Virus record (IMG/VR): IMGVR_UViG_3300035208_002115
Reading direction: 5' to 3' (one strand)
Origin: a virus
Lineage: Duplodnaviria; Caudoviricetes
Length of the DNA: 64,000 nt
In this document: in pieces, positions 3,340 through 15,708 of the stretch
How positions within the stretch are numbered: the stretch's first letter is position 1
Layout: every line of letters starts with the position of its first letter
Notes under the pieces: model-generated
What the model was told of the DNA's origin: nothing
The model's database searches: none
What the model saw: the letters and a program-made list of their open reading frames with translations, nothing else
Program-made: the position numbers and the translations under genes

Positions 3340-4929
3340 ATGAAGAACAACCCAATTTATGTTATAGATTTCAACGGGCAACCATTAATGCCAACATTCA
3401 GATATGGTAAGGTTCGTCATATGCTTAAAAATAACCAAGCAAAAATAATAAAAAGAGACCCATTCTTTACTATTCAATTATTAACAAACACATCGTCATA
3501 TATACAGTATATTATTGGTGGTATAGATATTGGTGAAACCGTTGGAATATCGGTAATAAACCCAAAAAATAATACTGAAATATTGTCTGCCGAATTAAAA
3601 ACACGTAGTAAAGATATTCCAGATAAACTTAAAGAAAAAACTCAATATAGAAGAACCCGAAGAAATCATTTAAGATATAGAACAAAAAGATTTGAGAATA
3701 GGAAATCTTCATTAGGTAAATGTAAAGTGTGTGGTGGTAATACTAAAAGTGGAAAAGAATTTTGCTCAACATGCTTAGATACAGTTAATGGTAATCATAA
3801 TGCTTATAAAGATATTTCTAAAACTACATCACAAAAAAGACTTGCACCAAGCGTAAATCATTTAATTGATGCCAATCATAAAATTATAAATAAAATAAAT
3901 GAAATATTACCTATTAAAGAAGAAAATTGGATATACGAAAAAGTTAAATTCGATATACAGAAAATAGAAAATATTGATATATCAGGTGTTGGATATCAGC
4001 AAGGTGATATGTTTGGTTTTTCAAGTTTGAGAGAATATATATTAGAAAGAGATGAACATACATGTCAAAACCCCAACTGTAAACATAAGAATATTAAAAA
4101 CCTAAAAAAAGGTGAAAATGTTTATTTGAAAAATAATATTACATTAGTAACACATCATATAATATTCAGACATCTTGGTGGCACAGATAAACCAAGTAAT
4201 TATATTACGTTGTGTACTGATTGTCATATACCAACAAATCATCTAAAGGGTTATTTTTTATATGATTGGTGTATAAAAAAGAAAAAAGTTAAAAGTGATT
4301 ATAAAGCTGCTACTAAAATGAATGTGGTCGCTTCTTCTTTTGATGAAAAAAAGAATTTTATACCCACGTTTGGTTCTGAAACAAAAAGAAAAAGACAATT
4401 GATTGGTTTAGATAAAACCCATTCGAATGATGCCCTTTCTATTTGTATAGATAAAAATAATTTTGATTTGATTGATGATTCTGGAAAAAAGAAAGTTGTT
4501 TTAAAACGAGATTTCAATTTAAAAAAAATAGAACATCCTGATTATCTTATTCAAACAAATGGTCGTTCTAATGGTAGACGAGCATTAAGTACATTTCAGG
4601 ATTCTAAATATATTGATATCAGAGATGGAAAAGAAAAATCAGGAAAAGAGTTATCAAAAGAAATGGATAAACGAACACTTATAAATAATAATAGAATTTA
4701 TAGGGGAAAGAAAACAAGTAAAGGTTCTTTTGTTAAAAGAACTGGTATAAGTGAATTTCCAAATAATTCAATTATCGAATTTACATATAATGGTAAACAT
4801 TTTATTAAAGTGTGTGGTGGTGTAACTGGATATAATGTATATGTTAAAGATTTCGAGAAAAAAACAGTTGCAATAAAAAAATGTAATGTAAAAATAATCT
4901 GTAAAAGAAAAGGTGTTATTAAAAAATAA
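3340..4929 (+). CDS. iscB: IscB RNA-guided endonuclease (OMEGA; CRISPR-associated), 529 aa
   Basis: N-terminal GQPLMP; RuvC-I GIDIG (D63); Arg-rich bridge helix RRTRRNHLRYR; RuvC-II IYEKVKFD; HNH THHI..RHLGGTD..SNYITLCTDCH; RuvC-III KTHSNDA; extra CxxC-x10-CxxC insert after the bridge helix. Confidence 0.95.
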   Translation: MKNNPIYVIDFNGQPLMPTFRYGKVRHMLKNNQAKIIKRDPFFTIQLLTNTSSYIQYIIGGIDIGETVGISVINPKNNTEILSAELKTRSKDIPDKLKEKTQYRRTRRNHLRYRTKRFENRKSSLGKCKVCGGNTKSGKEFCSTCLDTVNGNHNAYKDISKTTSQKRLAPSVNHLIDANHKIINKINEILPIKEENWIYEKVKFDIQKIENIDISGVGYQQGDMFGFSSLREYILERDEHTCQNPNCKHKNIKNLKKGENVYLKNNITLVTHHIIFRHLGGTDKPSNYITLCTDCHIPTNHLKGYFLYDWCIKKKKVKSDYKAATKMNVVASSFDEKKNFIPTFGSETKRKRQLIGLDKTHSNDALSICIDKNNFDLIDDSGKKKVVLKRDFNLKKIEHPDYLIQTNGRSNGRRALSTFQDSKYIDIRDGKEKSGKELSKEMDKRTLINNNRIYRGKKTSKGSFVKRTGISEFPNNSIIEFTYNGKHFIKVCGGVTGYNVYVKDFEKKTVAIKKCNVKIICKRKGVIKK

Positions 4930-4967
4930 TTTTTTTATATCATTATTTTTTTTATTTTTACATTTAA

Positions 4968-4976
4968 GTTCTTTGA
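4968..4976 (+). promoter_or_regulatory. boxA-like antitermination element upstream of the CRISPR array
   Basis: GTTCTTTGA; the same 9-mer recurs at 6232 and 6585 inside the tRNA cluster. Confidence 0.5.
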
Positions 4977-5032
4977 AATTTTGTTAAATATCGATTAAGC
5001 AGTCACACCTTAAAAATGCGACTTTGTAACTT

Positions 5033-5504
5033 GTTGTGTATTGCTTTCAATTAATTAAGTAATTCAGTTATATAGTTGTGTATTGCTTTCAATTGATTGG
5101 GTAACTCAGTGGAGCAATATTTATATTAAATCAAAGCAGGGTTGTGTATTGCTTTCAATTGATTGGGTAACTCAGTATAAAATAATAGAATTAGAAAAGC
5201 GGTTAAGTTGTGTATTGCTTTCAATTGATTGGGTAACTCAGTGGTTGCTATTGATGGCATCGTGTTAGCTTTGTTGTGTATTGCTTTCAATTGATTGGGT
5301 AACTCAGTTTCTTCTTAGCAAGTTTAGTCGCATTCAGTGTTGTGTATTGCTTTCAATTGATTGGGTAACTCAGTTTATATCAGGTTTTACAAATGTGGCA
5401 ACGTTGTGTATTGCTTTCAATTGATTGGGTAACTCAGTAAGATATCTATGGTGATGAACCTTGGGATAGTTGTGTATTGCTTTCAATTGATTGGGTAACT
5501 CAGT
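5033..5504 (+). CRISPR. CRISPR array, 8 x 36-nt repeats GTTGTGTATTGCTTTCAATTGATTGGGTAACTCAGT
   Basis: Repeats start at 5033 (degenerate, 4 mismatches), 5075, 5141, 5207, 5273, 5339, 5403, 5469; spacers of 6, 30, 30, 30, 30, 28 and 30 nt. Confidence 0.98.
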
Positions 5505-5790
5505 ATAGCAATAAACAAATCGTTGTTAATCAATCATTTGAAACTAAAATCCGATGTAAAAAATCGAATTTTTTGAACACATTTAGACTAAGAGAAAGGA
5601 TTTTTCCAATCCTAATATCTACGTTATGTTAGAATGTGGATTAAACCACAAATAGGTACGTTAGTGTGATTCCCAAGCACTATCTTCTACGGTTGTTTTT
5701 TAAACATCTCTGTGCAATAGGAGAAGTGAAAACAACAATAAACCTAACAATAACTTTGTCAAAGGGAACTAACAGGATTTATTCCTGATT
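5505..5790 (+). ncRNA. omegaRNA/HEARO-like scaffold with 5' anti-repeat segments (tracr-like), contiguous with the last CRISPR repeat
   Basis: Ordered omegaRNA-type motifs AGACTAAG, CTACGTT, ATAGGTAC, CCCAAG, TCTACG, TAAACA, AGTG, AAACC, ATAACTTTGTCAAAGGG; 5507-5518 and 5525-5543 are complementary to the repeat; boundaries approximate. Confidence 0.8.
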
Positions 5791-5818
5791 TATTGATATT
5801 TAACAATTTCAAAGAAAT

Positions 5819-5857
5819 AATAAAAGCAGATGATTTATTTATCTGCTTTTATTTTTT
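5819..5857 (+). terminator. intrinsic terminator closing the CRISPR-omegaRNA transcript
   Basis: 13-bp stem AATAAAAGCAGAT/ATCTGCTTTTATT followed by a T-run. Confidence 0.75.
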
Positions 5858-5877
5858 AAAAATAATTGCAACAAAAA

Positions 5878-5908
5878 TTTGTTTATATCGTAATAAGTAT
5901 TACATTTG
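5878..5908 (+). promoter_or_regulatory. Bacteroidota sigma-A-type promoter for the tRNA operon
   Basis: TTTG (5878-5881), 19 nt, TACATTTG (5901-5908); matches the -33 TTTG / -7 TAnnTTTG consensus. Confidence 0.7.
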
Positions 5909-5984
5909 CAAAGTCAAAATGGAAAAAAGTGACCTTTTTGACTTAATATATAAGAAAACAAAAACAAATTTAAAATAACGCAAA

Positions 5985-6071
5985 ATGCTACTTTGTAATT
6001 TATATAATATGTATCTTAATAACTTAGAGAATGATAAAACTCTGGGCAGGGATATACTATGTATAAGTTAA
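5985..6071 (+). CDS. putative attenuator leader peptide MLLCNLYNMYLNNLENDKTLGRDILCIS (28 aa)
   Basis: ATG 5985 to TAA 6071 between the promoter and a terminator; overlaps GGCAGGG (6045-6051), which can pair with the terminator 5' arm. Confidence 0.7.
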   Translation: MLLCNLYNMYLNNLENDKTLGRDILCIS

Positions 6072-6100
6072 AAGCGGTAAAGCATTAAAATATACAACGG

Positions 6101-6130
6101 AAACCCTGCCAGATTTGGCAGGGTTTTTTT
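6101..6130 (+). terminator. intrinsic terminator / attenuator just before the first tRNA
   Basis: AAACCCTGCCA-GATT-TGGCAGGGTTT plus T-run; alternative pairing available with 6042-6051. Confidence 0.85.
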
Positions 6131-6139
6131 GTTTTATAC

Positions 6140-6220
6140 GGCTTCATGGTGGAATGGCAGACACGTTAGTCTTAGGAACTAATACCGAAAGGCGTGAGGG
6201 TTCAAGTCCCTCTGAAGTCA
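6140..6220 (+). tRNA. tRNA-Leu(UAG)
   Basis: GGCTTCA/TGAAGTC acceptor stem, loop CTTAGGA, long variable arm, GGTTCAAGTCC T-arm. Confidence 0.93.
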
Positions 6221-6365
6221 CTAAAAAAAGAGTTCTTTGAAGAAATAAGGTTAGTAATCTGGACGCTTAACCAGCAGAAGGGTGAAGTTTCCTTGGAAGA
6301 AATTGATACAAACAGGCTTTGGTGGTTCTTAGCAATGTGTTGATAAAGTGACCGAAAACATAAAT

Positions 6366-6438
6366 GGAGCGTGTGGCGTAATTGGTAACGTGTATCCCTG
6401 TCACGGATAAGTTCGGGGTTCGAGTCCCCCACGCTCCG
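6366..6438 (+). tRNA. tRNA-Asp(GUC)
   Basis: GGAGCGT/ACGCTCC stem, loop CTGTCAC, GTTCGAGTC. Confidence 0.9.
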
Positions 6439-6446
6439 CTTAATTT

Positions 6447-6521
6447 GGTGCATTGGGCTTCGAGAAGGAGAACATGGTTGTCACCCATGTAAAATTAACG
6501 GATTGTCACCGTTATGCACCG
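6447..6521 (+). tRNA. atypical tRNA-Asp(GUC)-like RNA
   Basis: Perfect GGTGCAT/ATGCACC acceptor stem and CATGG-TTGTCAC-CCATG anticodon arm, but non-canonical D arm and T loop. Confidence 0.55.
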
Positions 6522-6650
6522 CTTAAAATTCACAAAATGTGATTTACAAATTGTGAATTCTCGATTTGCTAATTGCGAATCGATGTTCTTTGACGTATTG
6601 GGAAAAGGTATTTAAAATACGCCAGTGTGGATAGGTTCACACTGGTAAAT

Positions 6651-6724
6651 GGGGGTGTAGCGTAGTTGGTTAGCGCAACTGACTGTTAATCAGTAGGTCG
6701 TAGGTTCAAGTCCTACCACCCCCG
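6651..6724 (+). tRNA. tRNA-Asn(GUU)
   Basis: GGGGGTG/CACCCCC stem, loop CTGTTAA. Confidence 0.93.
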
Positions 6725-6732
6725 CATAAAAT

Positions 6733-6817
6733 TTCGTTGTGGCAGAGTGGTCAATTGCAACAGGCTCATATCCTGTGGTTAGAAATAACTTCGTGGGTTC
6801 GAATCCCACTGACGAGA
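6733..6817 (+). tRNA. tRNA with CAU anticodon (Met/Ile2) and long variable arm
   Basis: ACAGG-CTCATAT-CCTGT anticodon arm, variable arm GGTTAGAAATAACTTC, GGTTCGAATCC T-arm. Confidence 0.8.
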
Positions 6818-6824
6818 CAATAAT

Positions 6825-6896
6825 GGACATGTAGCTCAGAGGCAGAGCGACACCCTGTTAAGGTGAGGGTCGGGATTTCGATATTCTCCTTGTCCG
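6825..6896 (+). tRNA. tRNA-Asn(GUU)
   Basis: GGACATG/CTTGTCC stem, loop CTGTTAA, T loop TTCGATA. Confidence 0.8.
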
Positions 6897-6910
6897 CTTT
6901 TTAAAATATA

Positions 6911-6998
6911 TGCGAGGTGGTGTAACTGTTAACACGCTTGGCTCATAACCAAGAGACATCAAATGCTTGTGTGGGTTAGAATCCCACCTTCGCTCCCA
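6911..6998 (+). tRNA. tRNA with CAU anticodon (Met/Ile2), extended variable region, encoded CCA
   Basis: CTTGG-CTCATAA-CCAAG; GTGGG-TTAGAAT-CCCAC. Confidence 0.75.
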
Positions 6999-7095
6999 TT
7001 AACAATTTTTGTCGTAGTGGACGACAACCATTCAGGTAAGCTGGGTATCAAAATTTAACCATCAAGAAAGTGAGAGGCTTTCATTAAAAATATAT

Positions 7096-7169
7096 CGCAG
7101 GGTAGAGCAGTTGGTAGCTCGTCAGACTCATAATCTGAAGGTCGTGGCGTTCAAATCCCACCCCTGCAA
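7096..7169 (+). tRNA. initiator-type tRNA-fMet(CAU)
   Basis: CGCAGGG/CCCTGCA with C1:A72 mismatch; loop CTCATAA. Confidence 0.85.
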
Positions 7170-7175
7170 CTAAAT

Positions 7176-7247
7176 GCTCGGTTCGTATAGTGGTTAGTAC
7201 ACAACACCTTCAATGTTGTTACAGGGGTTCAATTCCCCTACCGAGTA
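7176..7247 (+). tRNA. tRNA-Glu(UUC), C at position 33
   Basis: GCTCGGT/ACCGAGT stem; CAACA-CCTTCAA-TGTTG. Confidence 0.8.
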
Positions 7248-7255
7248 CAAAATTT

Positions 7256-7338
7256 GGATAGGTAGCGAAGTGGTCAAACGCAATTGACTGTAAATCAATC
7301 ACTTACGAGTTTCGCAGGTTCGAATCCTGCCCTGTCCA
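7256..7338 (+). tRNA. tRNA-Tyr(GUA)
   Basis: GGATAGG/CCTGTCC stem, loop CTGTAAA, long variable arm. Confidence 0.93.
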
Positions 7339-7349
7339 CTTACTTAAAT

Positions 7350-7424
7350 GTTCGGTTCGTCTAACGGTCAAGGACGGCAGGTTTTCATCCTGTTAATAGG
7401 GGGGTTCGATTCCCCTACCGAATA
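7350..7424 (+). tRNA. tRNA-Glu(UUC)
   Basis: GTTCGGT/ACCGAAT stem, loop TTTTCAT. Confidence 0.88.
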
Positions 7425-7427
7425 CTA

Positions 7428-7763
7428 TTATCTCTCAGTATTAATCCAATAAGATTTGATATTTTCCTTGGCATCTTCGTCATATTCGATATATACTTCG
7501 CCTAAAGTTCTACCGTATTTTGCTAACCAAATACGTTTTTCATCGGCTAAACGATACCTGTTTTTCTTATCATATTCGACCGTTTCTATTCTATCGAGTT
7601 TACTATATAATTGTTTCTCGAATTCTTCTTTGGATATATGTTTAAATTGATTGTCTTTATGTTGTTCAACATAGGTTAAATATATAGCACGGTCAAAACG
7701 TTGTTGGTGTGTTTCACCGAAATCTTCATTTAAGAATTGGGAAAAGGATTGAACATTTTTCAT
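7428..7763 (-). CDS. hypothetical protein with N-terminal FxxFLNE motif, antisense within the tRNA cluster
   Basis: 111-aa ORF MKNVQSFSQFLNE; AATATATA motif upstream. Confidence 0.7.
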   Translation of the reverse strand: MKNVQSFSQFLNEDFGETHQQRFDRAIYLTYVEQHKDNQFKHISKEEFEKQLYSKLDRIETVEYDKKNRYRLADEKRIWLAKYGRTLGEVYIEYDEDAKENIKSYWINTER

Positions 7764-7842
7764 GATAAATAAAAATATTTTTTATTATATATTAAACATC
7801 TTACCATAATTTGACTATTTATAGAAAAATATTTTAATTAAT

Positions 7843-8025
7843 ATGATGGATGTTTCAGAATATAAAAGAAGAAGAAGACGTGCTTTAAAAGCAGTAAAGG
7901 CTCATACAAAATATAACAAACAAGAAGTGAAAGAATATTATGCTACTTGTAAATCCTATAAACAAACAATGGAACATTTTGGGATGACAAGTAAAGGCAC
8001 ACTTCATTGGAATTTAAATAATTAG
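7843..8025 (+). CDS. small hypothetical protein
   Basis: 60-aa basic ORF. Confidence 0.45.
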   Translation: MMDVSEYKRRRRRALKAVKAHTKYNKQEVKEYYATCKSYKQTMEHFGMTSKGTLHWNLNN

Positions 8026-8108
8026 CCCTCATGTCGAAAGTTTGGTAGCCGAAGCAGTTTCAAACACTGTTGCTGAAAGGCGTGTAGGTTCGAGTCCTAC
8101 TGGGGGTA
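8025..8108 (+). tRNA. tRNA-Leu(CAA)
   Basis: GCCCTCA/TGGGGGT stem, loop TTCAAAC, long variable arm. Confidence 0.88.
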
Positions 8109-8140
8109 CATACTATATTGATAAAAAATAATAATTTTAT

Positions 8141-8995
8141 GTGATTAAAAAATGTGAGAATTATGATAAAGAAACATTAGATAAAATAATACAAAAATGT
8201 TTTTCAATAGCTGGAGTTTGTAGAGAATTAAATATAAAAGCAATTGGTGGTAATTATAAAACTATAAAATATTATATCAATGCTTATAATCTTGATATAT
8301 CACATTTTACTGGTAAAGGCTGGAATATAGGTGAAAGATATAATAACGTTAAAAATAAAATCCCTTTAAGTGAAATATTAGTTGAGAATTCCACATATAC
8401 AAATACACATTTATTAAAGAAAAGACTTGTTAAAGAAGGTTATTTTGAATATAAATGTAATGAATGTGGATTAACTGAATGGTGTAATAAACCAATTTCC
8501 TTGCATTTAGACCATATTAATGGCGATAATTTAGACCATAGAATAGAGAACCTAAGATTATTATGTCCGAATTGTCATAGTCAAACAGAAACTTACTGTT
8601 CTAAAAATAAAAAAAGTTCAAAAAATACATTAAGAATACATAATTTTATTGAAAATAAAGATTTCTTAATCAATAGAGAATCAAAGAAACAAAAACATTA
8701 TTGTGAATGTGGTAAAGAAATAGAAAAAAGGGCTAAAAAATGCAGAGAATGTTATAAAAAAGATAGAACTGAAAGTGTTAAACAAAAAAATCATTGTGCA
8801 TGTGGTAAAGTGATTAAAAATGAATCAGTGATGTGTTTGGATTGTTTACATAAACATAACAGAAAAGTGGAAAGACCATCATATGAACAATTAATTTTAG
8901 AAATTAATGAATCTTCTTATACCTCAGTGGGTAAAAAATATAATGTTGCAGCTAAAACCATTAAAAAATGGAAATTAGCTTATGAAAGAATTTAA
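8141..8995 (+). CDS. free-standing HNH (homing-type) endonuclease with C-terminal zinc-ribbon repeats
   Basis: CNEC...LHLDHINGDNLDHRIENLRLLCPNCHSQT; repeated CxCGK...CxxC units. Confidence 0.9.
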   Translation: MIKKCENYDKETLDKIIQKCFSIAGVCRELNIKAIGGNYKTIKYYINAYNLDISHFTGKGWNIGERYNNVKNKIPLSEILVENSTYTNTHLLKKRLVKEGYFEYKCNECGLTEWCNKPISLHLDHINGDNLDHRIENLRLLCPNCHSQTETYCSKNKKSSKNTLRIHNFIENKDFLINRESKKQKHYCECGKEIEKRAKKCRECYKKDRTESVKQKNHCACGKVIKNESVMCLDCLHKHNRKVERPSYEQLILEINESSYTSVGKKYNVAAKTIKKWKLAYERI

Positions 8996-8999
8996 AAAC

Positions 9000-9295
9000 G
9001 CTCCTATGGTGGAATGGCAGACACGATGGACTTATACAATTTGAGTGCTTATAGAGAAATCTGTAAAGTAGAACTTGTCAAATTCGATGAAACCTATAAA
9101 ATGGTAATATCGAGCCAACCCATCTTTTTTTAGATGGAAGTGTGTAGAGAGTAGACGGCAAGCACCTAAGTCGAAAGATATGGTGAAGGTGTATTCCAGA
9201 CCACAAAATCAATTTGATGCGATGAAAGTCGTAGTGGTAAGAAAATCCATTGGGCAGTAATGTTCGTATCGGTTCAAGTCCGATTAGGAGTACCA
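9000..9295 (+). tRNA. tRNA-Leu(UAA) interrupted by a group I intron; encoded CCA
   Basis: Exon 1 9000-9033 ends ATGGACTT; exon 2 9242-9295 starts AAAATCCAT; spliced loop CTTAAAA; acceptor GCTCCTA/TAGGAGT. Confidence 0.92.
9034..9241 (+). ncRNA. group I self-splicing intron (tRNA-Leu UAA type, 208 nt, no internal ORF)
   Basis: Inserted after U34 and ends in G; core CAAATTCGATGAAACC..GGTAATATCGAGCCAA..GTAGAGAGTAGACGG..AAGGTGTATTCC parallels cyanobacterial/plastid trnL introns. Confidence 0.9.
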
Positions 9296-9361
9296 AAAAA
9301 CAGGATAACAAATGGGTTATCCTGTTTTAAAACAAAACATTTTATTTTCACTATATTAATA

Positions 9362-9706
9362 ATGCAAAACATTGATGTTTTAATTTTCATAAAAAGTATA
9401 AGAGAATCCTTTAGTAGTTCAGTAACTGTTTATACATATGGTAATTGCTACCAATTTTATGAAATATTAAAAACAATATATCCAGAAGCCGAAGCTTATT
9501 ATGATGGCAGTCATGTCTGGACAAAAATAGGTGATAAATATTATGATATAACAGGTGAATTAAAGCTTGAAGGTAAGTTTGAAAACATAAATTTAAGACC
9601 AATTGTAGATAATGAACAAATTGCATCATTATCTAAGAATAAATGGTCAGATGAAAGAAGAAAAGATTATTGTCAAGAATACAAAAACAAATTATTAAAT
9701 AAATGA
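9362..9706 (+). CDS. hypothetical protein
   Basis: ATG at 9362 preferred because the track start (9260) overlaps the tRNA; GNCYQF..HVWTKI motif. Confidence 0.7.
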   Translation: MQNIDVLIFIKSIRESFSSSVTVYTYGNCYQFYEILKTIYPEAEAYYDGSHVWTKIGDKYYDITGELKLEGKFENINLRPIVDNEQIASLSKNKWSDERRKDYCQEYKNKLLNK

Positions 9707-9918
9707 AAAGAGGTACGATAGAGCAACAAGAAAGATTTTCTAAATTAGATATACAGAAAATGTATCCAAATGAATGTGAAAATTATGATATTGTAGCACT
9801 TATGGAAATGTGGCATTTATATAATAGTGAACCGAAACGTGGTGATTGGATTGATGGTAAAATAATTGAAGAAGTGACGAATGATGGGACAGCATACTTC
9901 ATCTTATTAAAGAAATAG
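9703..9918 (+). CDS. hypothetical protein
   Basis: 71-aa ORF overlapping the previous stop. Confidence 0.6.
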   Translation: MKRGTIEQQERFSKLDIQKMYPNECENYDIVALMEMWHLYNSEPKRGDWIDGKIIEEVTNDGTAYFILLKK

Positions 9919-9953
9919 ACAATATTTATAAAATATACTTGCAAGTCAAAGTG

Positions 9954-10069
9954 AAATACCCCAACCGAAAGACAAGTAGGTTACTGGTGCAGAGGTGGTT
10001 CGAGTCCCCGAACAGACCAAGGTCGTGCTTGGCTTGTGCAGGTTCGCAAAAAACAGTTTGGGGGTATTT
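9954..10069 (+). ncRNA. unassigned structured RNA with T-loop-like element
   Basis: Closing stem AAATACCCCAA/TTGGGGGTATTT; internal GGTTCGAGTCC; GC-rich relative to flanks. Confidence 0.5.
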
Positions 10070-10074
10070 TTAAT

Positions 10075-10149
10075 AGTGCGTTAGTTCAGTGGTAGAATAC
10101 AAGTTTGTCACACTTGGGGTCAGGGGTTCAAATCCCCTACGCACTGCCA
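10075..10149 (+). tRNA. tRNA-Asp(GUC), encoded CCA
   Basis: AGTGCGT/ACGCACT stem; CAAGT-TTGTCAC-ACTTG. Confidence 0.92.
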
Positions 10150-10334
10150 ATGAAAGCTGATAATAAAAACAACCCTTGAATAGGTTGTAAAGGTTGCTAA
10201 ATAATGGATGAATTGCAATCTAAAACAAGAATCGACTATTTCCATTATTATTTTCAGCTTTTATTTAAAACAAAATATTTATTTTTGTATATAAATAATA
10301 AATTTTTTTAGTTTAATTAATTAAGTAATAATTT

Positions 10335-10643
10335 ATGGCACAAATACCAAATGAAGTAATTGATGTTGTTAGAAAAAAACACAACGCTCAGATAACAACA
10401 ATTGAAAATGAATTTGATAATTATATATGGAGATTATCAGCAATAATTACAGGGAGTGCTAACAGAGCTGATAGTTCAAAAATAGCCACCGAAGTATCTA
10501 AATATTTGCAATTAGTTAAAAAAGAGTTTATTCTTAATTGGTGCAATGTTGAATTCTTAGAAGCTGTTTCTCAGCATCAAAGTGATTTTTTAGATAAAAA
10601 TGGGTTTGACTCTGAAGAAGTTGTTAAAGAATTTAAATATTAA
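10335..10643 (+). CDS. hypothetical protein
   Basis: 102-aa ORF. Confidence 0.65.
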   Translation: MAQIPNEVIDVVRKKHNAQITTIENEFDNYIWRLSAIITGSANRADSSKIATEVSKYLQLVKKEFILNWCNVEFLEAVSQHQSDFLDKNGFDSEEVVKEFKY

Positions 10644-10780
10644 AATTTATAACGGACTTTTGTTATTTCATTTTATAAATAAAAACGTTCTTTCAAATAA
10701 TCATTTCTAAAAAGTAGATTGGCCATACGAGTTAGTCGTGTCCCTTGGAGTTTCTTAGGTAAACAAAAAACACGAAACTT

Positions 10781-11170
10781 ATGGAAACAAACTATTTATT
10801 TTTAAATGATTACGCAGGGTTCACTTATGAAGCGGTTGTTGAGGACATAGTTGCCAACTATCAGGTGTCACAATCTTTTGTTGATAACTATCGTATCTTG
10901 GTGGCACATCTTTCTGGTGATGGTGGGTACGAAGAATCTTCTTATTTCTTATTGGTTGAGAAATCTACTGGTAATTTATTTGAAGTTTCTGGTGGTCACT
11001 GTTCCTGTTATGGTTTCGAAGGCCAGTTTGAGCCAGAGATTACTTCGATAGAGTATCTTATTTCAGAACAGTCCTACTTCGGTAGAGACCCTGAAGTAAA
11101 GAAACAAATCGAGATTTGTTTGGTGAAATGGATTCGTTACTTGAAATTGAAAGAAATATTCGAGTTCTAA
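10781..11170 (+). CDS. hypothetical phage protein with C-terminal RxxKL motif
   Basis: GGHCSCYG motif; ends IRYLKLKEIFEF. Confidence 0.7.
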   Translation: METNYLFLNDYAGFTYEAVVEDIVANYQVSQSFVDNYRILVAHLSGDGGYEESSYFLLVEKSTGNLFEVSGGHCSCYGFEGQFEPEITSIEYLISEQSYFGRDPEVKKQIEICLVKWIRYLKLKEIFEF

Positions 11171-11222
11171 ATGAAAGTTTAGGACTCGATTTTTTATATA
11201 TAAAAAGAAAACAACATATTAA

Positions 11223-11780
11223 ATGATTTTTAGTTATATATCATTTATCAAAGAAAACATAAAACATCAATATAAATTTTATAAAAATATTGATAATATT
11301 GTTGATGGTGAACCATTAGTTTATTATAATGTTCCATTTGAATTAGGCGAAAAAGGTATAGGTTTTAGTGATACAGAAGATTGGAAACATTATTTAGGTA
11401 ACCAATATGTTTATGATTATATTAAAGACATTGATATAAAAGAAGCTTTAAAAGAAGACTTATCTAATATAAATATATCTGTTGATTGGACTTCTATAAA
11501 AGAAGATGATATAATAAACAATATATCAGCATATCAAAATAAAAATAAACATTCTTTAAGAATTGCCAAATTAGTTAAAGAGATGTTAGATAACAAACCA
11601 ATAAGACCAGTTTCAATGTTTTTTGATGCGATGTCGTATAATTACGATATAAAGAATAACATTGAAGATGGAAATCATAGAATAAGAGCATTACAATATT
11701 TAAAATATGATGGGTTTCCAGCTTACATATATGGTGGACATTCAAAATATCTTATTGAATATTTAAATCAAAATATTTAG
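11223..11780 (+). CDS. ParB/sulfiredoxin-like domain protein
   Basis: IEDGNHRIRAL motif; N-terminal YxxFIKE motif. Confidence 0.65.
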   Translation: MIFSYISFIKENIKHQYKFYKNIDNIVDGEPLVYYNVPFELGEKGIGFSDTEDWKHYLGNQYVYDYIKDIDIKEALKEDLSNINISVDWTSIKEDDIINNISAYQNKNKHSLRIAKLVKEMLDNKPIRPVSMFFDAMSYNYDIKNNIEDGNHRIRALQYLKYDGFPAYIYGGHSKYLIEYLNQNI

Positions 11781-11891
11781 ATGGGTTTTTTATCAATCTA
11801 AGCATCTATATTTATTATAGAATTTTTTTTATAATATTTTTCATATTATTTTTGGTTCATTATTTTTACTACAAACCAAAAATTTACTACT

Positions 11892-12155
11892 ATGTTTGAG
11901 AACGTGATACTTGCAGAAATAGAAGGTGTTAAATATATACTTTCTGAAGATATAAAATATGGTGATAAAGTTGTTGGGTATTTTGAAGTTGGTAAATATT
12001 GGTTAACTGATTGTATAGCGAAGAACAACTTTGATGAAGGTGACATCAAAAACCAGTTTTTGATTTTCAAAGATGGTATTAGTTGTGGTGTAGCCAACAA
12101 TCCATTCAAACACCAAAGATGGTTCAAGGTAATAGGAACTCTTAAAGAAGTATGA
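11892..12155 (+). CDS. hypothetical protein
   Basis: 87-aa ORF. Confidence 0.55.
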   Translation: MFENVILAEIEGVKYILSEDIKYGDKVVGYFEVGKYWLTDCIAKNNFDEGDIKNQFLIFKDGISCGVANNPFKHQRWFKVIGTLKEV

Positions 12156-12210
12156 TGGTACTAATAAAATATTAGACTTCTTTTTATATATAGAAATAAA
12201 AATATTTTTT

Positions 12211-12966
12211 ATGGGGTATATTAAAAAATACGATGAAGTGGTTAATGAGCATAAATCCTCATTCAAGGTTTGTATAAAATGGGCGCATGGTGATGATGAT
12301 TTCTTCACCGATAAAATATATTATTTTTCTACTGAAGAAATGATGAGGAAGTATTTGGATTTTATTTTTGATGTTCGAAAATTTATACCAAACAGAGGTT
12401 ATAAAAATCTTGGTTATTTTGAAGATGGATACCACGAAGGAAAAGGAGAATGGGTTCGAAAAATAGCTGAAAAACACAATCCAGAATTTATTGATTATAT
12501 GGAGATTGACGGGTCTGGCCCAAGTGACCATTATGCAAATATTGAAGACATTTATGTTAAAATAGGTAATAAAAGAAAATTTATCGTCTGGTCAGAAGCA
12601 TTAAATACTAACATTATAAGTTTACCAGAAAAAGGTTCTATAATAGATACCAATTCTGGACAAATATGTGGACATGGTAAATACACATTTGGTGGTAAAA
12701 CCAGTGACTATTTATACCATTGGGATTTGAAAAAAATATATGATGAGAAAAAAGAAGGTAAATATACCCCAATGAAACTTGAAATATTAGATATTAAGAT
12801 AGCTAATTATAGCAATTATATTAAAGATTATGACGCTTTTAAATACGAGGTGTTGTGTAAGATACCAGAAGGATTAGTAACAACCGAAATTGATGGATAC
12901 GACCCAGATTTTGAGAAAAAGTATAATAAAGAAAAGTGGGATGGTATGTCACTATATTTAGTTTAG
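12211..12966 (+). CDS. hypothetical protein (N-terminal YIKKYDEVVNE motif)
   Basis: 251-aa ORF; TATATATA at 12185. Confidence 0.7.
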   Translation: MGYIKKYDEVVNEHKSSFKVCIKWAHGDDDFFTDKIYYFSTEEMMRKYLDFIFDVRKFIPNRGYKNLGYFEDGYHEGKGEWVRKIAEKHNPEFIDYMEIDGSGPSDHYANIEDIYVKIGNKRKFIVWSEALNTNIISLPEKGSIIDTNSGQICGHGKYTFGGKTSDYLYHWDLKKIYDEKKEGKYTPMKLEILDIKIANYSNYIKDYDAFKYEVLCKIPEGLVTTEIDGYDPDFEKKYNKEKWDGMSLYLV

Positions 12967-13082
12967 CGCATATTTTTGATTATATCATATTCAGCGCATA
13001 TTTTTATCATAGGATTTTTTTTACAGAACATTTCTTAATATTTTTGGTATGTTAATTTTATTACAAACCAAAAAGTTCTGAT

Positions 13083-14297
13083 ATGAAAAGGATTAGAAAA
13101 TTTAAAGTTACTTCGACCTTAAAAAGTGGTAAGACAGTAAGTCAGCCGTCTTTTGGTAGAAAAGATTTAAATGTTGTAATTTCAGCTTTAATATCAGATG
13201 TGGATGTAGAATCAGTGAACATTTCCAAGGAAGGTTTTGCCGATGCATCAGATATTAAGATTTGGAATTTATAATTTAAAAATATACTGATATGAAAACA
13301 CCGTTGAAATTCTACATTGGTGAAAGGAGTAATCCACAGTTAAAAAAGTCTTATTTTGTTACCTATGGCAGGTTAACAAAAAAGGATGCTCAGAAAAAGG
13401 AAGATTGTCTTTACGGCAGTATGTCTTTAACCCCGTATGAAACCGAGGAAGAATATAACACTGCAATATCAAAACTGGAAGAAGAAGGGTTTAATATTAA
13501 AAATAGTGTTTGAGTCATGAAAAAAGTAAGACTAATGAAACGGGTTATGAAATGTTTGATGATTTTTGTAGTATTGTCAATAGTTTCTATGATGTACATT
13601 GCTTTTAACTTCGAAGCGTATAGAGGTATTACGTTTTTACTATCGAGTTTATCGATTTTAACTACTGCTGTTATATTTTACACTTTTTATCTGGTTGTAA
13701 AATATGTCTTGAATCTTGACCAAGATACAGAAAAATCGGAAGATGTTGGTAATATATTAATGTCTTTTGTTTACAACGGGAAGAAACATATTAAAATTGT
13801 TTAACTATGAATATATTTAATTTTTTCAAAAGAAATTCATCATTTGAAATAGGTGAATATGTTCGCTTAGATAAAGGAAAAAGTAGTGACCAATTGGTTA
13901 AATTGACTGAAATATATGATGGTGGTAAGGTTTGTTATATTGAAGGACACTATTGGTCTGGTACAGTGGATATGAAACGAATAAGTAAAGAGGTATGAAA
14001 AAATTAAAAGATATCAAGTACGAAATACTTAATGATATACTTATTGTAGTATTCATTTTAAGCCAAGTAATACCCATTGTGTGGATGGGTGTATATTTGT
14101 ATAAGAATAGTGATAGGGTAGAGGAATATTACACAGTTACAGTCTCCAATATTGATGCTGACCATGTTATAATGAATAAGAGATTAGATGGTTATGAATT
14201 AATAGGTCGGGATTATTGTCAAAATGGTGAGCCAAATGAATTATATTCTGGTGATAATATGGTTACTATTTCGATGATTAAATTGAAAAACCCATAA
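13083..14297 (+). other. run of five small hypothetical CDS (13083-13274, 13292-13513, 13517-13804, 13807-13998, 13995-14297)
   Basis: Co-oriented, tightly packed ORFs; two have hydrophobic segments. Confidence 0.6.
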
Positions 14298-14304
14298 CAA
14301 AAAC

Positions 14305-14385
14305 GGTGGAATGCCTGAGTGGTTGAAGGGGGCGGTCTGCAAAACCGCTACGAAAGTCTCGTGGGTTCGAATCCCACTTCCACCT
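14305..14385 (+). tRNA. tRNA-Cys(GCA) with extended variable loop
   Basis: GGTGGAA/TTCCACC stem, U73, GCGGT-CTGCAAA-ACCGC. Confidence 0.9.
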
Positions 14386-14404
14386 CAAAACAAAAATTAT
14401 CAAT

Positions 14405-14659
14405 ATGACACCAGAAGATGTTCTAAAAAATTGCATTAAATTCGAGGTTAAAGATTTTGAACGAATCTTTATAGAATCTGGATATAAAAGTTCTGATAGT
14501 GTAATAAGTTTAGAGGATGCTATGTCAGCTATAAAAGAATATATGGAATATGCTGATAATGTTGCTCTACATTGTATCCAGTTGGCGACAAATTTAAACT
14601 ATGGTAGTAGATGCTCACTGGAATATTTGCAGAAAGCAAAAGATAAAATGAAAAAGTAA
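14405..14659 (+). CDS. hypothetical protein
   Basis: 84-aa ORF. Confidence 0.55.
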   Translation: MTPEDVLKNCIKFEVKDFERIFIESGYKSSDSVISLEDAMSAIKEYMEYADNVALHCIQLATNLNYGSRCSLEYLQKAKDKMKK

Positions 14660-14757
14660 AAAGAAAGGAGAATACAAATTATGATTGATTTTAGTTAGAT
14701 ACTCACCTACGTGGTGAGTTTTTTATTACGTATTATTAAAAAATTAAATACTAAAAA

Positions 14758-15408
14758 ATGAAACAATATCCACACATAGAGTATTGGAATCAATGTAAGT
14801 TTGGTTCTACCATCTGGGGATTTGATAAATTAGATGGCTCTAATATCCGAGCCGAGTGGAGAAAAAAAAGAGGGTTTTATAAATTCGGGACTAAACAACA
14901 AATGATTGATACCCGACACCCACAATTCGGTGAAGCTGTCACACTATTTCTAAACAAGTATAATGAAGGGTTATCTAAAATATTCACTGATGATAAGTAT
15001 TACAGAAACGTTCAAAACTTTGTAGTATTTTCAGAATATTTTGGTGAAAATTCATTTGCTGGATATCATATACCAGAAGATAAAAAAGACATTTTACTTT
15101 TCGATATCAGCCTTTATAAAAAAGGTTGGGTTAAACCAAAAGACTTTATAAACGATTTTGAGCATCTTGGGATACCAAGACTAATATATCATGGTAATTA
15201 TAATAAAAAGCTTATACGTGATGTAAAAGAAGGTATTTTTGATGTAAAAGAAGGTATAGTCGTTAAAGGTTTAAGACAAACAAAAGGTGACGAACTGGTT
15301 TGGTTAACTAAAATAAAGACCAATGAATGGTTAAAAAGATTGAAGAACAAATTCGGTGAGAAGTATCTTTTGAAAGAAGTAAATTACGATAAAGAATTGT
15401 TAGATTAA
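14758..15408 (+). CDS. RNA ligase-like nucleotidyltransferase (Rnl2-type adenylation domain)
   Basis: Motif I KLDGSN, FSEYFG, LLFDI, EGIVVK, KIK. Confidence 0.75.
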   Translation: MKQYPHIEYWNQCKFGSTIWGFDKLDGSNIRAEWRKKRGFYKFGTKQQMIDTRHPQFGEAVTLFLNKYNEGLSKIFTDDKYYRNVQNFVVFSEYFGENSFAGYHIPEDKKDILLFDISLYKKGWVKPKDFINDFEHLGIPRLIYHGNYNKKLIRDVKEGIFDVKEGIVVKGLRQTKGDELVWLTKIKTNEWLKRLKNKFGEKYLLKEVNYDKELLD

Positions 15409-15438
15409 TATGGGTGGGCTTTATGCCCACTCAAATAT

Positions 15439-15524
15439 GGATAGGTAGCAAAGTGGTTAAATGCGCTTGACTGTAAATCAAGTCCCTTCGGGGTTCGTAG
15501 GTTCGAATCCTACCCTGTCCACCA
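15439..15524 (+). tRNA. tRNA-Tyr(GUA), encoded CCA
   Basis: GGATAGG/CCTGTCC stem; CTTGA-CTGTAAA-TCAAG. Confidence 0.93.
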
Positions 15525-15528
15525 ATAT

Positions 15529-15611
15529 GAGTAGGTATGCAAATGGCGAAGCAAGCGGTCTGTAAAACCGTGACGTAAGAGACACTGGGGGTTCAAATCC
15601 CTCTCTACTCA
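15529..15611 (+). tRNA. tRNA-Tyr(GUA), divergent copy
   Basis: GAGTAGG/TCTACTC stem; GCGGT-CTGTAAA-ACCGT. Confidence 0.85.
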
Positions 15612-15708
15612 CTTTTAAATATCCTTTTACCCATACATGTCAATTATATCCCATAAAAATATTATTTCTTAATATATTTTTTCATATTTTTGTTTAATAA
15701 AACATGAT

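Follow-up and report, generated by a model that had tools for sequence, protein, structure and literature searches.

A leader unit in front of a phage tRNA cluster

We analysed a 64,000-nucleotide (nt) stretch of DNA (the window) from the Caudoviricetes virus record IMGVR_UViG_3300035208_002115, in which a short open reading frame (ORF), here called leader A, lies between a promoter and a cluster of transfer RNA (tRNA) genes. The window represents positions 125370-189369 of the 675,678-bp record, which has a guanine-plus-cytosine (GC) content of ~27% and which the standard genetic code fits. Its nearest GenBank relatives, at 44–50% protein identity, are the 634–735 kb genomes of Al-Shayeb et al. 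2020, which were assigned to the Mahaphage clade with predicted Bacteroidetes hosts (PMC7162821); at 735 kb, LR756501.1 is the largest phage genome reported. A whole-genome ARAGORN search gave 40 tRNAs, namely one isolated suppressor-like gene and three clusters (A, B and C) that together cover all 20 amino acids. The window holds 16 of them: Leu-TAG, Leu-CAA, three Asp, two Asn, three with anticodon CAT, two Glu, three Tyr and one Cys.

A sequence-only reading of this interval had proposed that leader A is an attenuator whose codons sense the tRNAs encoded downstream. The parts it listed, an ORF at 5985-6071 followed by a terminator and a first tRNA at 6140, are all present, with the stem placed at 6099-6128 (Table 1). 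Its tally of downstream tRNAs was right for the seven specificities and wrong for the number of Leu genes, as ARAGORN and Rfam both find two (TAG and CAA) rather than three. The restriction of the leader to seven amino acids that all have tRNAs downstream was confirmed for codons 2–17, which we refer to as the sensor. Under standard wobble, 12 of the 16 sensor codons are read by a cluster A tRNA, and a further two (CTT) would need four-way U34 reading. Of the 3,252 ORFs in the genome with an ATG start and 20–60 codons, leader A alone has a 16-residue in-set prefix, the runner-up reaching 8.

The putative promoter at 5878-5908 was also recovered and fits the Bacteroidota consensus. Since the pattern by itself occurs in the window no more often than expected (4 matches versus 5.0), support for it comes from conservation: it recurs in a sister phage and 5' of leaders B and C, which precede the other two clusters. 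A generic sigma-70 scan was uninformative in this AT-rich DNA (73 matches versus 68 expected). The unit upstream is closed by its own terminator, leaving leader A isolated as a transcription unit, and tRNA-Leu begins 10 nt after the T run, too close for a promoter of its own to fit in between.

Between promoter and ORF lies a conserved 34-nt module, TGGAAAAAA-N16-AATATATAA, which was found 5' of all three leaders of this genome, of the sister-phage leaders and, among the matches listed, of ~18 metagenomic leader loci. Written as GGAAAAAA-N17-ATATATAA, with a central T run, it occurs at window 5920-5953, at genome 544981-545013 (-) and 555247-555278 (-), and at L155, L156 and L158. It also stands 5' of the major head protein gene (phrog_138, E 1e-19) and of capsid-like genes of LR756501/LR756504, and is therefore not attenuator-specific; no Bacteroidota -7 box lies upstream of the capsid-gene copy. 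The module may be a phage-specific (perhaps late) promoter or a strong element of the 5' untranslated region, and if so tRNA expression would be tied to structural-gene expression.

Table 1. Positions of the leader units, tRNA clusters and regulatory elements (window coordinates unless genome or LR756501.1 is given)
Feature	Position	Strand	Details
Intrinsic terminator of upstream unit (CRISPR-like array and HEARO-like RNA)	5820..5857	+	hairpin -15.6 kcal/mol, then T run
Bacteroidota-type promoter (putative)	5878..5908	+	-33 TTTG 5878-5881; 19-nt spacer; -7 TAcaTTTG 5901-5908
Conserved 34-nt module	5920..5953	+	TGGAAAAAA-N16-AATATATAA; recurs before leaders
Leader ORF A	5985..6071	+	28 codons; ATG start; TAA stop; sensor codons 2-17; own set 16/16; out-of-set none
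Sensor segment of leader A, codons 2-17	5988..6035	+	only Leu, Cys, Asn, Tyr, Met, Glu, Asp codons
Antiterminator 5' strand (region 2)	6042..6052	+	in ORF codons 20-23; core GGCAGGG 6045-6051
Inner antiterminator helix	6060..6096	+	6060-6065 with 6091-6096; encloses stop codon 6069-6071
Intrinsic terminator of leader A	6099..6130	+	13-bp stem: 5' arm 6099-6111, loop 6112-6115, 3' arm 6116-6128; T run 6124-6130
tRNA-Leu(TAG), first gene of cluster A	6140-6221	+	ARAGORN
Contiguous cluster A operon	6140..7425	+	Leu(TAG), Asp x2, Asn, CAT, Asn, CAT x2, Glu, Tyr, Glu; ARAGORN, Rfam
Dispersed cluster A genes, ORFs between	8025..15612	+	Leu(CAA) 8025-8109; Asp 10075-10149; Cys 14305-14386
Dispersed cluster A Tyr genes	15439-15524, 15529-15612	+	without own leader, like the other dispersed genes
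Leader B	genome 608676-608542	-	44 codons; sensor codons 2-28; own set 24/27; out-of-set Met, Asn, Tyr
Cluster B	genome 605885-608458	-	Thr, Gly, Ala, Gln, Pro, Arg(CCT, TCT)
Leader C	genome 648092-647973	-	39 codons; sensor codons 2-24; own set 22/23; out-of-set one Leu
Cluster C	genome 641904-647883	-	Ser, Trp, Ile, Val, His, Phe, Lys, Arg(ACG)
Met/Gln/Ile/Glu cluster	LR756501.1, ORF start 174214	-	leader I/M/Q/E-rich
Ile/Cys/Asp/Asn/Tyr cluster	LR756501.1, ORF start 188505	-	leader core YNDYCIND
Leu x5 cluster	LR756501.1, ORF start 195157	-	leader 33% Leu versus ~8% genome-wide; N, I present
Trp/His/Phe/Lys/Ser cluster	LR756501.1, ORF start 207491	-	leader matches set
Arg/Thr/Val/Ala/Gly/Pro cluster	LR756501.1, ORF start 367596	-	leader matches set

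Leader codons follow the local tRNA set

The genome carries three candidate attenuator units, one per tRNA cluster, which jointly cover all 20 amino acids. Leader B was located by a leader-DNA search, through a promoter match just 5' of cluster B, and leader C by a motif scan; both units repeat the order of promoter, module, short ORF, terminator and first tRNA. When whole peptides are scored against the three tRNA sets, the counts are 20/3/5, 10/27/9 and 10/4/25, and each leader is the top (or sole) small ORF of the 3,252 for its own set. The leader B sensor is GC-rich despite the 27% GC of the genome. The correspondence extends to individual codons, with 27 of 29 tRNA species having a cognate codon in their own leader. 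Arg is split at this level, AGG and AGA standing in leader B with Arg-CCT and Arg-TCT, and CGC in leader C with Arg-ACG. The two Gln tRNAs are likewise matched by CAA and CAG in their leader, Ile-GAT and Ile-TAT by ATT and ATA, and the three Ser tRNAs by AGY, TCA and TCC.

We then compared orthologous leaders in two sister phages, one known from a 640-kb record and the other from a 422-kb fragment that came from another sample. The sister leader A also has 28 codons, reached through in-frame indels (+3, -6 and +3 nt) in mid-sensor, and its new codons all belong to set A except for one Gln at codon 2. Promoter, module, GGCAGGG and terminator are identical in the sister phage, and the rest of the ORF has diverged. 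For leaders B and C, six of the eight sensor differences are synonymous, with frame and stop kept, and changes such as AGC to AGT or TCA to TCG leave the reading tRNA unchanged. The sister phage has a Leu(TAA) gene that is replaced by other sequence in the window. In one sister phage the promoter of leader B is separated from the module by a ~140-amino-acid (aa) ORF (L022 1578-2010).

More distant leaders were sought by scanning metagenomes with the 34-nt module. This returned at least 120 loci, mostly unrelated AT-rich matches or ordinary genes; at least 18 had a + strand tRNA within 600 nt, and the 16 with an intervening short ORF were analysed. With those of the two sister phages and the 735-kb Mahaphage, ~20 leaders beyond this genome are available; they face other partitions of the tRNAs, and the peptides match. 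The leader before a Ser-only array has seven Ser codons in a row, those before Leu/Gln/Met arrays are rich in Q and L, and the one before an array of Asp, three Asn, Cys and Met has the core NMNCNNDMD. Likewise, Lys/His/Phe/Trp/Ser arrays have K/H/F/S/W-rich leaders and Arg/Thr/Val/Ala/Gly arrays have T/P/V/A/R/G-rich ones. Gln, Val and Glu move between clusters among phages, and every time the corresponding leader carries each of them; Val, for example, shares a cluster with Thr/Gly/Ala/Arg tRNAs in some phages and with Ser/Lys/Phe tRNAs here, and the leaders change accordingly. In a permutation test on 11 independent contigs, 137 of 306 residues were in set, compared with 67.6 +/- 13.1 for permuted pairings, and none of 200,000 permutations was as high; the use of whole peptides and truncated tRNA sets makes this test conservative. 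The match is also specific to the reading frame, since 66% of sensor-segment residues are in set in the ORF frame versus 25% and 24% in the other two.

We also predicted before inspection that LR756501.1 would show the same arrangement, and a short ORF and a terminator precede all five of its multi-tRNA clusters. When every leader was scored against every set (a 5x5 table), the leader's own set came out on top in four of five cases. Covariation of leader codons with tRNA content had been suggested as a check by the sequence-only reading, which also held that homologous leaders indifferent to the tRNA set would speak against it; within this genome, in the sister phages, and in the distant contigs and LR756501.1, the leaders track their local sets. 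The design is common to related huge phages of the Mahaphage clade with predicted Bacteroidota hosts, and occurs, unannotated, in published genomes including LR756501.1.

The clusters have some further features of their own. The first gene after leader C, tRNA-Ser(TGA) at genome 647801-647883 (-), is missed by ARAGORN at default settings and found with relaxed ones; its sister-phage orthologues are detected at the defaults. Between it and tRNA-Trp lie an HNH-endonuclease-like ORF and a 77-aa ORF (genome 647054-647800, -). A ribosomal-protein-bL12-like ORF sits between leader and tRNA cluster 2 of LR756501.1 (~187732-188440, -). Two GC-rich hairpins, at 6561-6583 (+) and 6645-6622 (-), occupy the 128-nt gap between tRNA-Asp and tRNA-Asn and are conserved in the sister phage. 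The 9-mer GTTCTTTGA occurs beside tRNA genes and after an IscB-like ORF (window 4968, 6232 and 6585, +), and more copies flank cluster C tRNAs. Its three window copies, against 0.9 expected, are a weak excess (10 of 100 shuffles reach three); it might be a processing or promoter element.

A predicted terminator/antiterminator switch

The leader A terminator is strong (-20.4 kcal/mol, with a T7 tail), and the GGCAGGG core of region 2, located within the ORF, closely resembles its 3' arm and can pair with CCCTGCC (6104-6110) in the 5' arm. The duplex is predicted at -15.9 kcal/mol, compared with -6.7 for shuffled sequences (z -4.4), and none of 300 shuffles was as good. Both this pairing and an inner helix around the stop codon had been noticed beforehand and hold up; in the sister phage the inner helix carries a compensatory G-C to U-A swap. 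The same parts recur elsewhere. Terminators of -11 to -23 kcal/mol begin 20–47 nt past the stop codon in 23 of 23 leaders, and terminators are also present in five of five LR756501.1 leaders. A site within the ORF complementary to the terminator 5' arm was significant (p<0.05) in 19 of the 23, with two more close; in these leaders it is the best partner of that arm, spans 7–13 nt in the 3' part of the ORF and always comes directly after the sensor codons. The five LR756501.1 leaders likewise have in-ORF antiterminator pairing. Since the paired sequences differ between leaders (GGCAGGG, GCTGAGTG, CTGGACT, GACTGGCTTT, GTCGGGGT and others), region 2, 5' arm and 3' arm covary three ways.

As equilibrium folding of the full leader always gives the terminator, we folded truncated transcripts with a masked ribosome footprint. 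In the eight leaders treated in this way, the antiterminator is the minimum free energy structure of transcripts cut before the 3' arm, whether sensor codons 5–14 are masked or the RNA is ribosome-free; for leader A this structure includes the inner helix. No 1:2 anti-antiterminator of the trp type was found in these eight; region 2 pairs with the terminator arm and not with the sensor. The trp/his-type logic of the sequence-only reading is retained for its ORF, codons, terminator and antiterminator, and not for the 1:2 anti-antiterminator. Such pairing is specific to the trp subtype; it is no general feature of the attenuator class.

We consider it likely, judging from sequence, that the element is a ribosome-mediated leader-peptide transcription attenuator that gates the phage tRNA operon by sensing decoding capacity for the tRNA identities encoded behind it; the three paralogous units with sensors matching their own sets argue for this interpretation. 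Transcription would start from the promoter or the module, and a ribosome would translate the 28-codon leader. When all sensor codons are decoded fast, the ribosome would cross 6045-6051 and end at the stop codon, which falls within the loop that the antiterminator would otherwise form. The 5' arm of the terminator, thus freed, would pair with the 3' arm, and RNA polymerase would halt ~10 nt before tRNA-Leu. When any sensor codon is slow, its tRNA being scarce, uncharged or cleaved, the ribosome would stall upstream of region 2. GGCAGGG could then pair with CCCTGCC once this is transcribed, the terminator would be blocked, and the tRNA genes would be transcribed. Because host and phage tRNAs read the same codons, the predicted circuit would feed back negatively on the total supply, and a shortage of any one of the tRNAs in a cluster would suffice to trigger it (OR logic). 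Since no anti-antiterminator was found, an untranslated leader is predicted to read through (default ON).

Several observations weigh against this interpretation. Without a 1:2 pairing, termination would have to rely on the ribosome occluding or topologically blocking region 2. The stop codons of leaders A, B and C lie 17–31 nt beyond region 2, which would therefore stay uncovered by a ribosome halted at the stop. Timing is the weak point, as steric or topological blocking or trailing ribosomes would have to act. The switch would also lean on tight transcription-translation coupling during infection of Bacteroidota, which is an assumption, and if the module is a phage-polymerase promoter, the response of that polymerase to a hairpin terminator is a caveat. 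The codon match has its own exceptions. Two TTA codons in the leader A sensor have no phage-encoded reader in the genome, neither Leu-CAA nor Lys-CTT finds a codon in the leader of its cluster, stretches of out-of-set residues occur in some of the distant leaders, and the leader of the Leu-only cluster of LR756501.1 is only 33% Leu. Finally, tRNA-Cys lies 8 kb downstream, beyond intervening ORFs and other terminators.

No further attenuators were found before the dispersed sub-clusters at window 8025, 10075, 14305 and 15439 or at genome 606113. A strong hairpin 6 nt 5' of tRNA-Ile(TAT) (genome 642839-642865) was rejected as a candidate, as it follows an ordinary ORF and has no leader.

The ORF could be translated and its codons selected while the output lies in tRNA-precursor processing or stability, or in a leader RNA acting in trans, with the terminator serving as a leaky constitutive insulator. 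Such an output would suit those leaders that are separated from the first tRNA by 100–390 nt containing small protein genes, and attenuator-derived small RNAs are known in Sinorhizobium (rnTrpL, PMC6614838). We find it improbable, because in nearly all leaders the antiterminator complementarity reaches significance, keeps its position and covaries, which a constitutive terminator would leave unexplained.

The sign of the response could also be reversed, such that stalling on the leader uncouples ribosome and polymerase and promotes termination, intrinsic or Rho-dependent; the tRNAs would then be made when decoding is efficient, in a feed-forward manner. The ORF, the terminator and the codon match leave the sign unfixed, and the 1:2 hairpin was not found. 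What makes this quite improbable is the conserved in-ORF strand 3' of the sensor codons, which pairs with the terminator 5' arm and which stalling would leave free, favouring read-through, together with the antiterminator being the default fold.

It is highly improbable that the ORFs are functional micropeptides or untranslated, the unit being an independent small RNA gene and the resemblance to the tRNA sets a product of ancestry or base composition. Same-type leaders are homologous across phages, and part of the association is inherited. Against this, the match is frame-specific, reaches the codon level (the Arg split between B and C), follows the re-partitioning of Gln, Val, Glu, Leu and Ser among clusters and is unique among the 3,252 small ORFs; composition would also have to account for a GC-rich leader B in a 27% GC genome, and a 10 nt gap from terminator to tRNA leaves no room for a tRNA promoter.

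Ribosome-free, T-box-like sensing, with leader codons as specifiers that bind anticodons directly, would share the output logic of a tRNA-dependent terminator/antiterminator switch and is barely credible, since ATG, stop and frame are conserved through in-frame indels and synonymous changes, the sensors hold 16–27 different codons and not one specifier, no Rfam family (T-box included) matches 5878-6139 even at E up to 1, and no T-box match appears in 4800-8500 at that threshold, where ncr1575 and rnk leader are chance matches far below their gathering scores.

Genomic context, known systems and meaning

Two other features of these genomes were examined along the way. The isolated suppressor-like tRNA (G000:C1:37754-37827, -, outside the window) has anticodon TTA and would read the TAA stop codon, and LR756501.1 has two tRNAs with anticodon CTA at 690585-690738. 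Stop-codon recoding, which the TTA anticodon brought to mind, was rejected: ORF coverage is nearly unchanged with TAG or TGA readthrough and nonsensical with TAA. Upstream of leader A, an IscB-like locus occupies window 3340-5773 (+). Its 529-aa ORF (3340-4929) has RRXRR (E 5e-42) and HNH domains and is followed by a CRISPR-like array (~5033-5510; 7–8 copies of a 36-nt repeat, 66-nt period) and a HEARO/omega-RNA-like element (5575-5773; 67 bits, under the gathering score of 83). The array spacers probably differ between phages, because sister-phage homology begins only at ~5403.

Amino-acid operon attenuators of enterobacteria include trpL, hisL, leuL, pheL, thrL and ilvL, of which the thr and ilv leaders are multivalent. 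As in these trp/his-type leaders, the regulated genes are separated from their promoter by a short ORF whose regulatory codons name the supply that is sensed, and an intrinsic terminator competes with an alternative hairpin that takes the terminator 5' arm; by our prediction the choice depends on ribosome position, and stalling leads to read-through. The phage unit differs in regulating tRNA genes, so that the sensed molecule is the product and not the amino acid of a pathway. Its sensor samples 6–8 amino acids and up to 12 anticodons, unlike the runs of 1–3 amino acids in the classical leaders, and its antiterminator strand is inside the ORF, 5' of the stop codon. Unlike trp, for which an untranslated leader is super-attenuated, the phage leaders have no 1:2 anti-antiterminator that we could find and are predicted to be ON when untranslated. 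The context also differs, being a phage with predicted hosts in the phylum Bacteroidota.

Two other systems come close in single respects. The E. coli pheST attenuator, with its pheM leader, likewise attenuates a component of the translation apparatus and senses charged-tRNA supply; unlike the phage units, it is cellular, senses a single amino acid and targets a synthetase. T-box riboswitches of Firmicutes make a tRNA-dependent choice between terminator and antiterminator before translation-related genes, but bind uncharged tRNA directly through one specifier codon and without a ribosome, whereas the phage ORF is conserved as a reading frame. In Li et al. 2015 (PMC4824070), the position of the ribosome relative to a Rho-independent terminator, and with it the distance of the stop codon, set termination efficiency, as would be the case in the phage leaders. 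There, a terminator a few bp from the gene is repressed and termination efficiency increases with distance, with no threshold given in the abstract; the system described there, unlike ours, is engineered in E. coli and has no antiterminator. Going by that result, the spacing of 20–47 nt from stop to terminator should let a terminating ribosome avoid occluding the terminator.

Full-text searches of the literature turned up no account of tRNA genes, in phages or otherwise, under leader-peptide attenuation. The sequence-only reading likewise knew of no described multi-tRNA attenuator of a phage tRNA operon, and we know of no earlier case in which such attenuation controls tRNA genes and senses its own product. 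The strings "attenuat" and "leader" are absent from the text of PMC7162821. When leader DNA was compared with the GenBank phage collection by blastn, only the tRNA part matched, and exact-pattern scans of IMG/VR for the leader returned the two sister records only. The class of mechanism is classical; the novelty lies in the target (tRNA genes, with the operon sensing what it makes), in a multi-codon sensor tailored to the cluster, in wiring predicted to be ON by default and in the phage setting.

The usual proposals for phage tRNA genes are that they match codon usage, replace degraded host tRNAs or evade tRNA-targeting defences. If the attenuator interpretation is true, phage tRNA output would be demand-driven, cluster by cluster. 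The three orthogonal leaders predict three disjoint sets of amino acids or tRNAs whose withdrawal would trigger read-through. For annotation, the rule would be that a leader peptide predicts the content of its tRNA cluster, and vice versa. The leaders would also supply small natural components that report how available chosen tRNAs are. More tentatively, huge Bacteroidota phages may possess a modular, self-tuning tRNA supply in which sensors are rewritten as tRNA genes move. The default-ON leaders might in that case act as counter-defence sensors of anticodon nucleases, tRNA depletion, translation shut-off or phage-induced host shut-off, and could be natural programmable detectors of single-tRNA availability.

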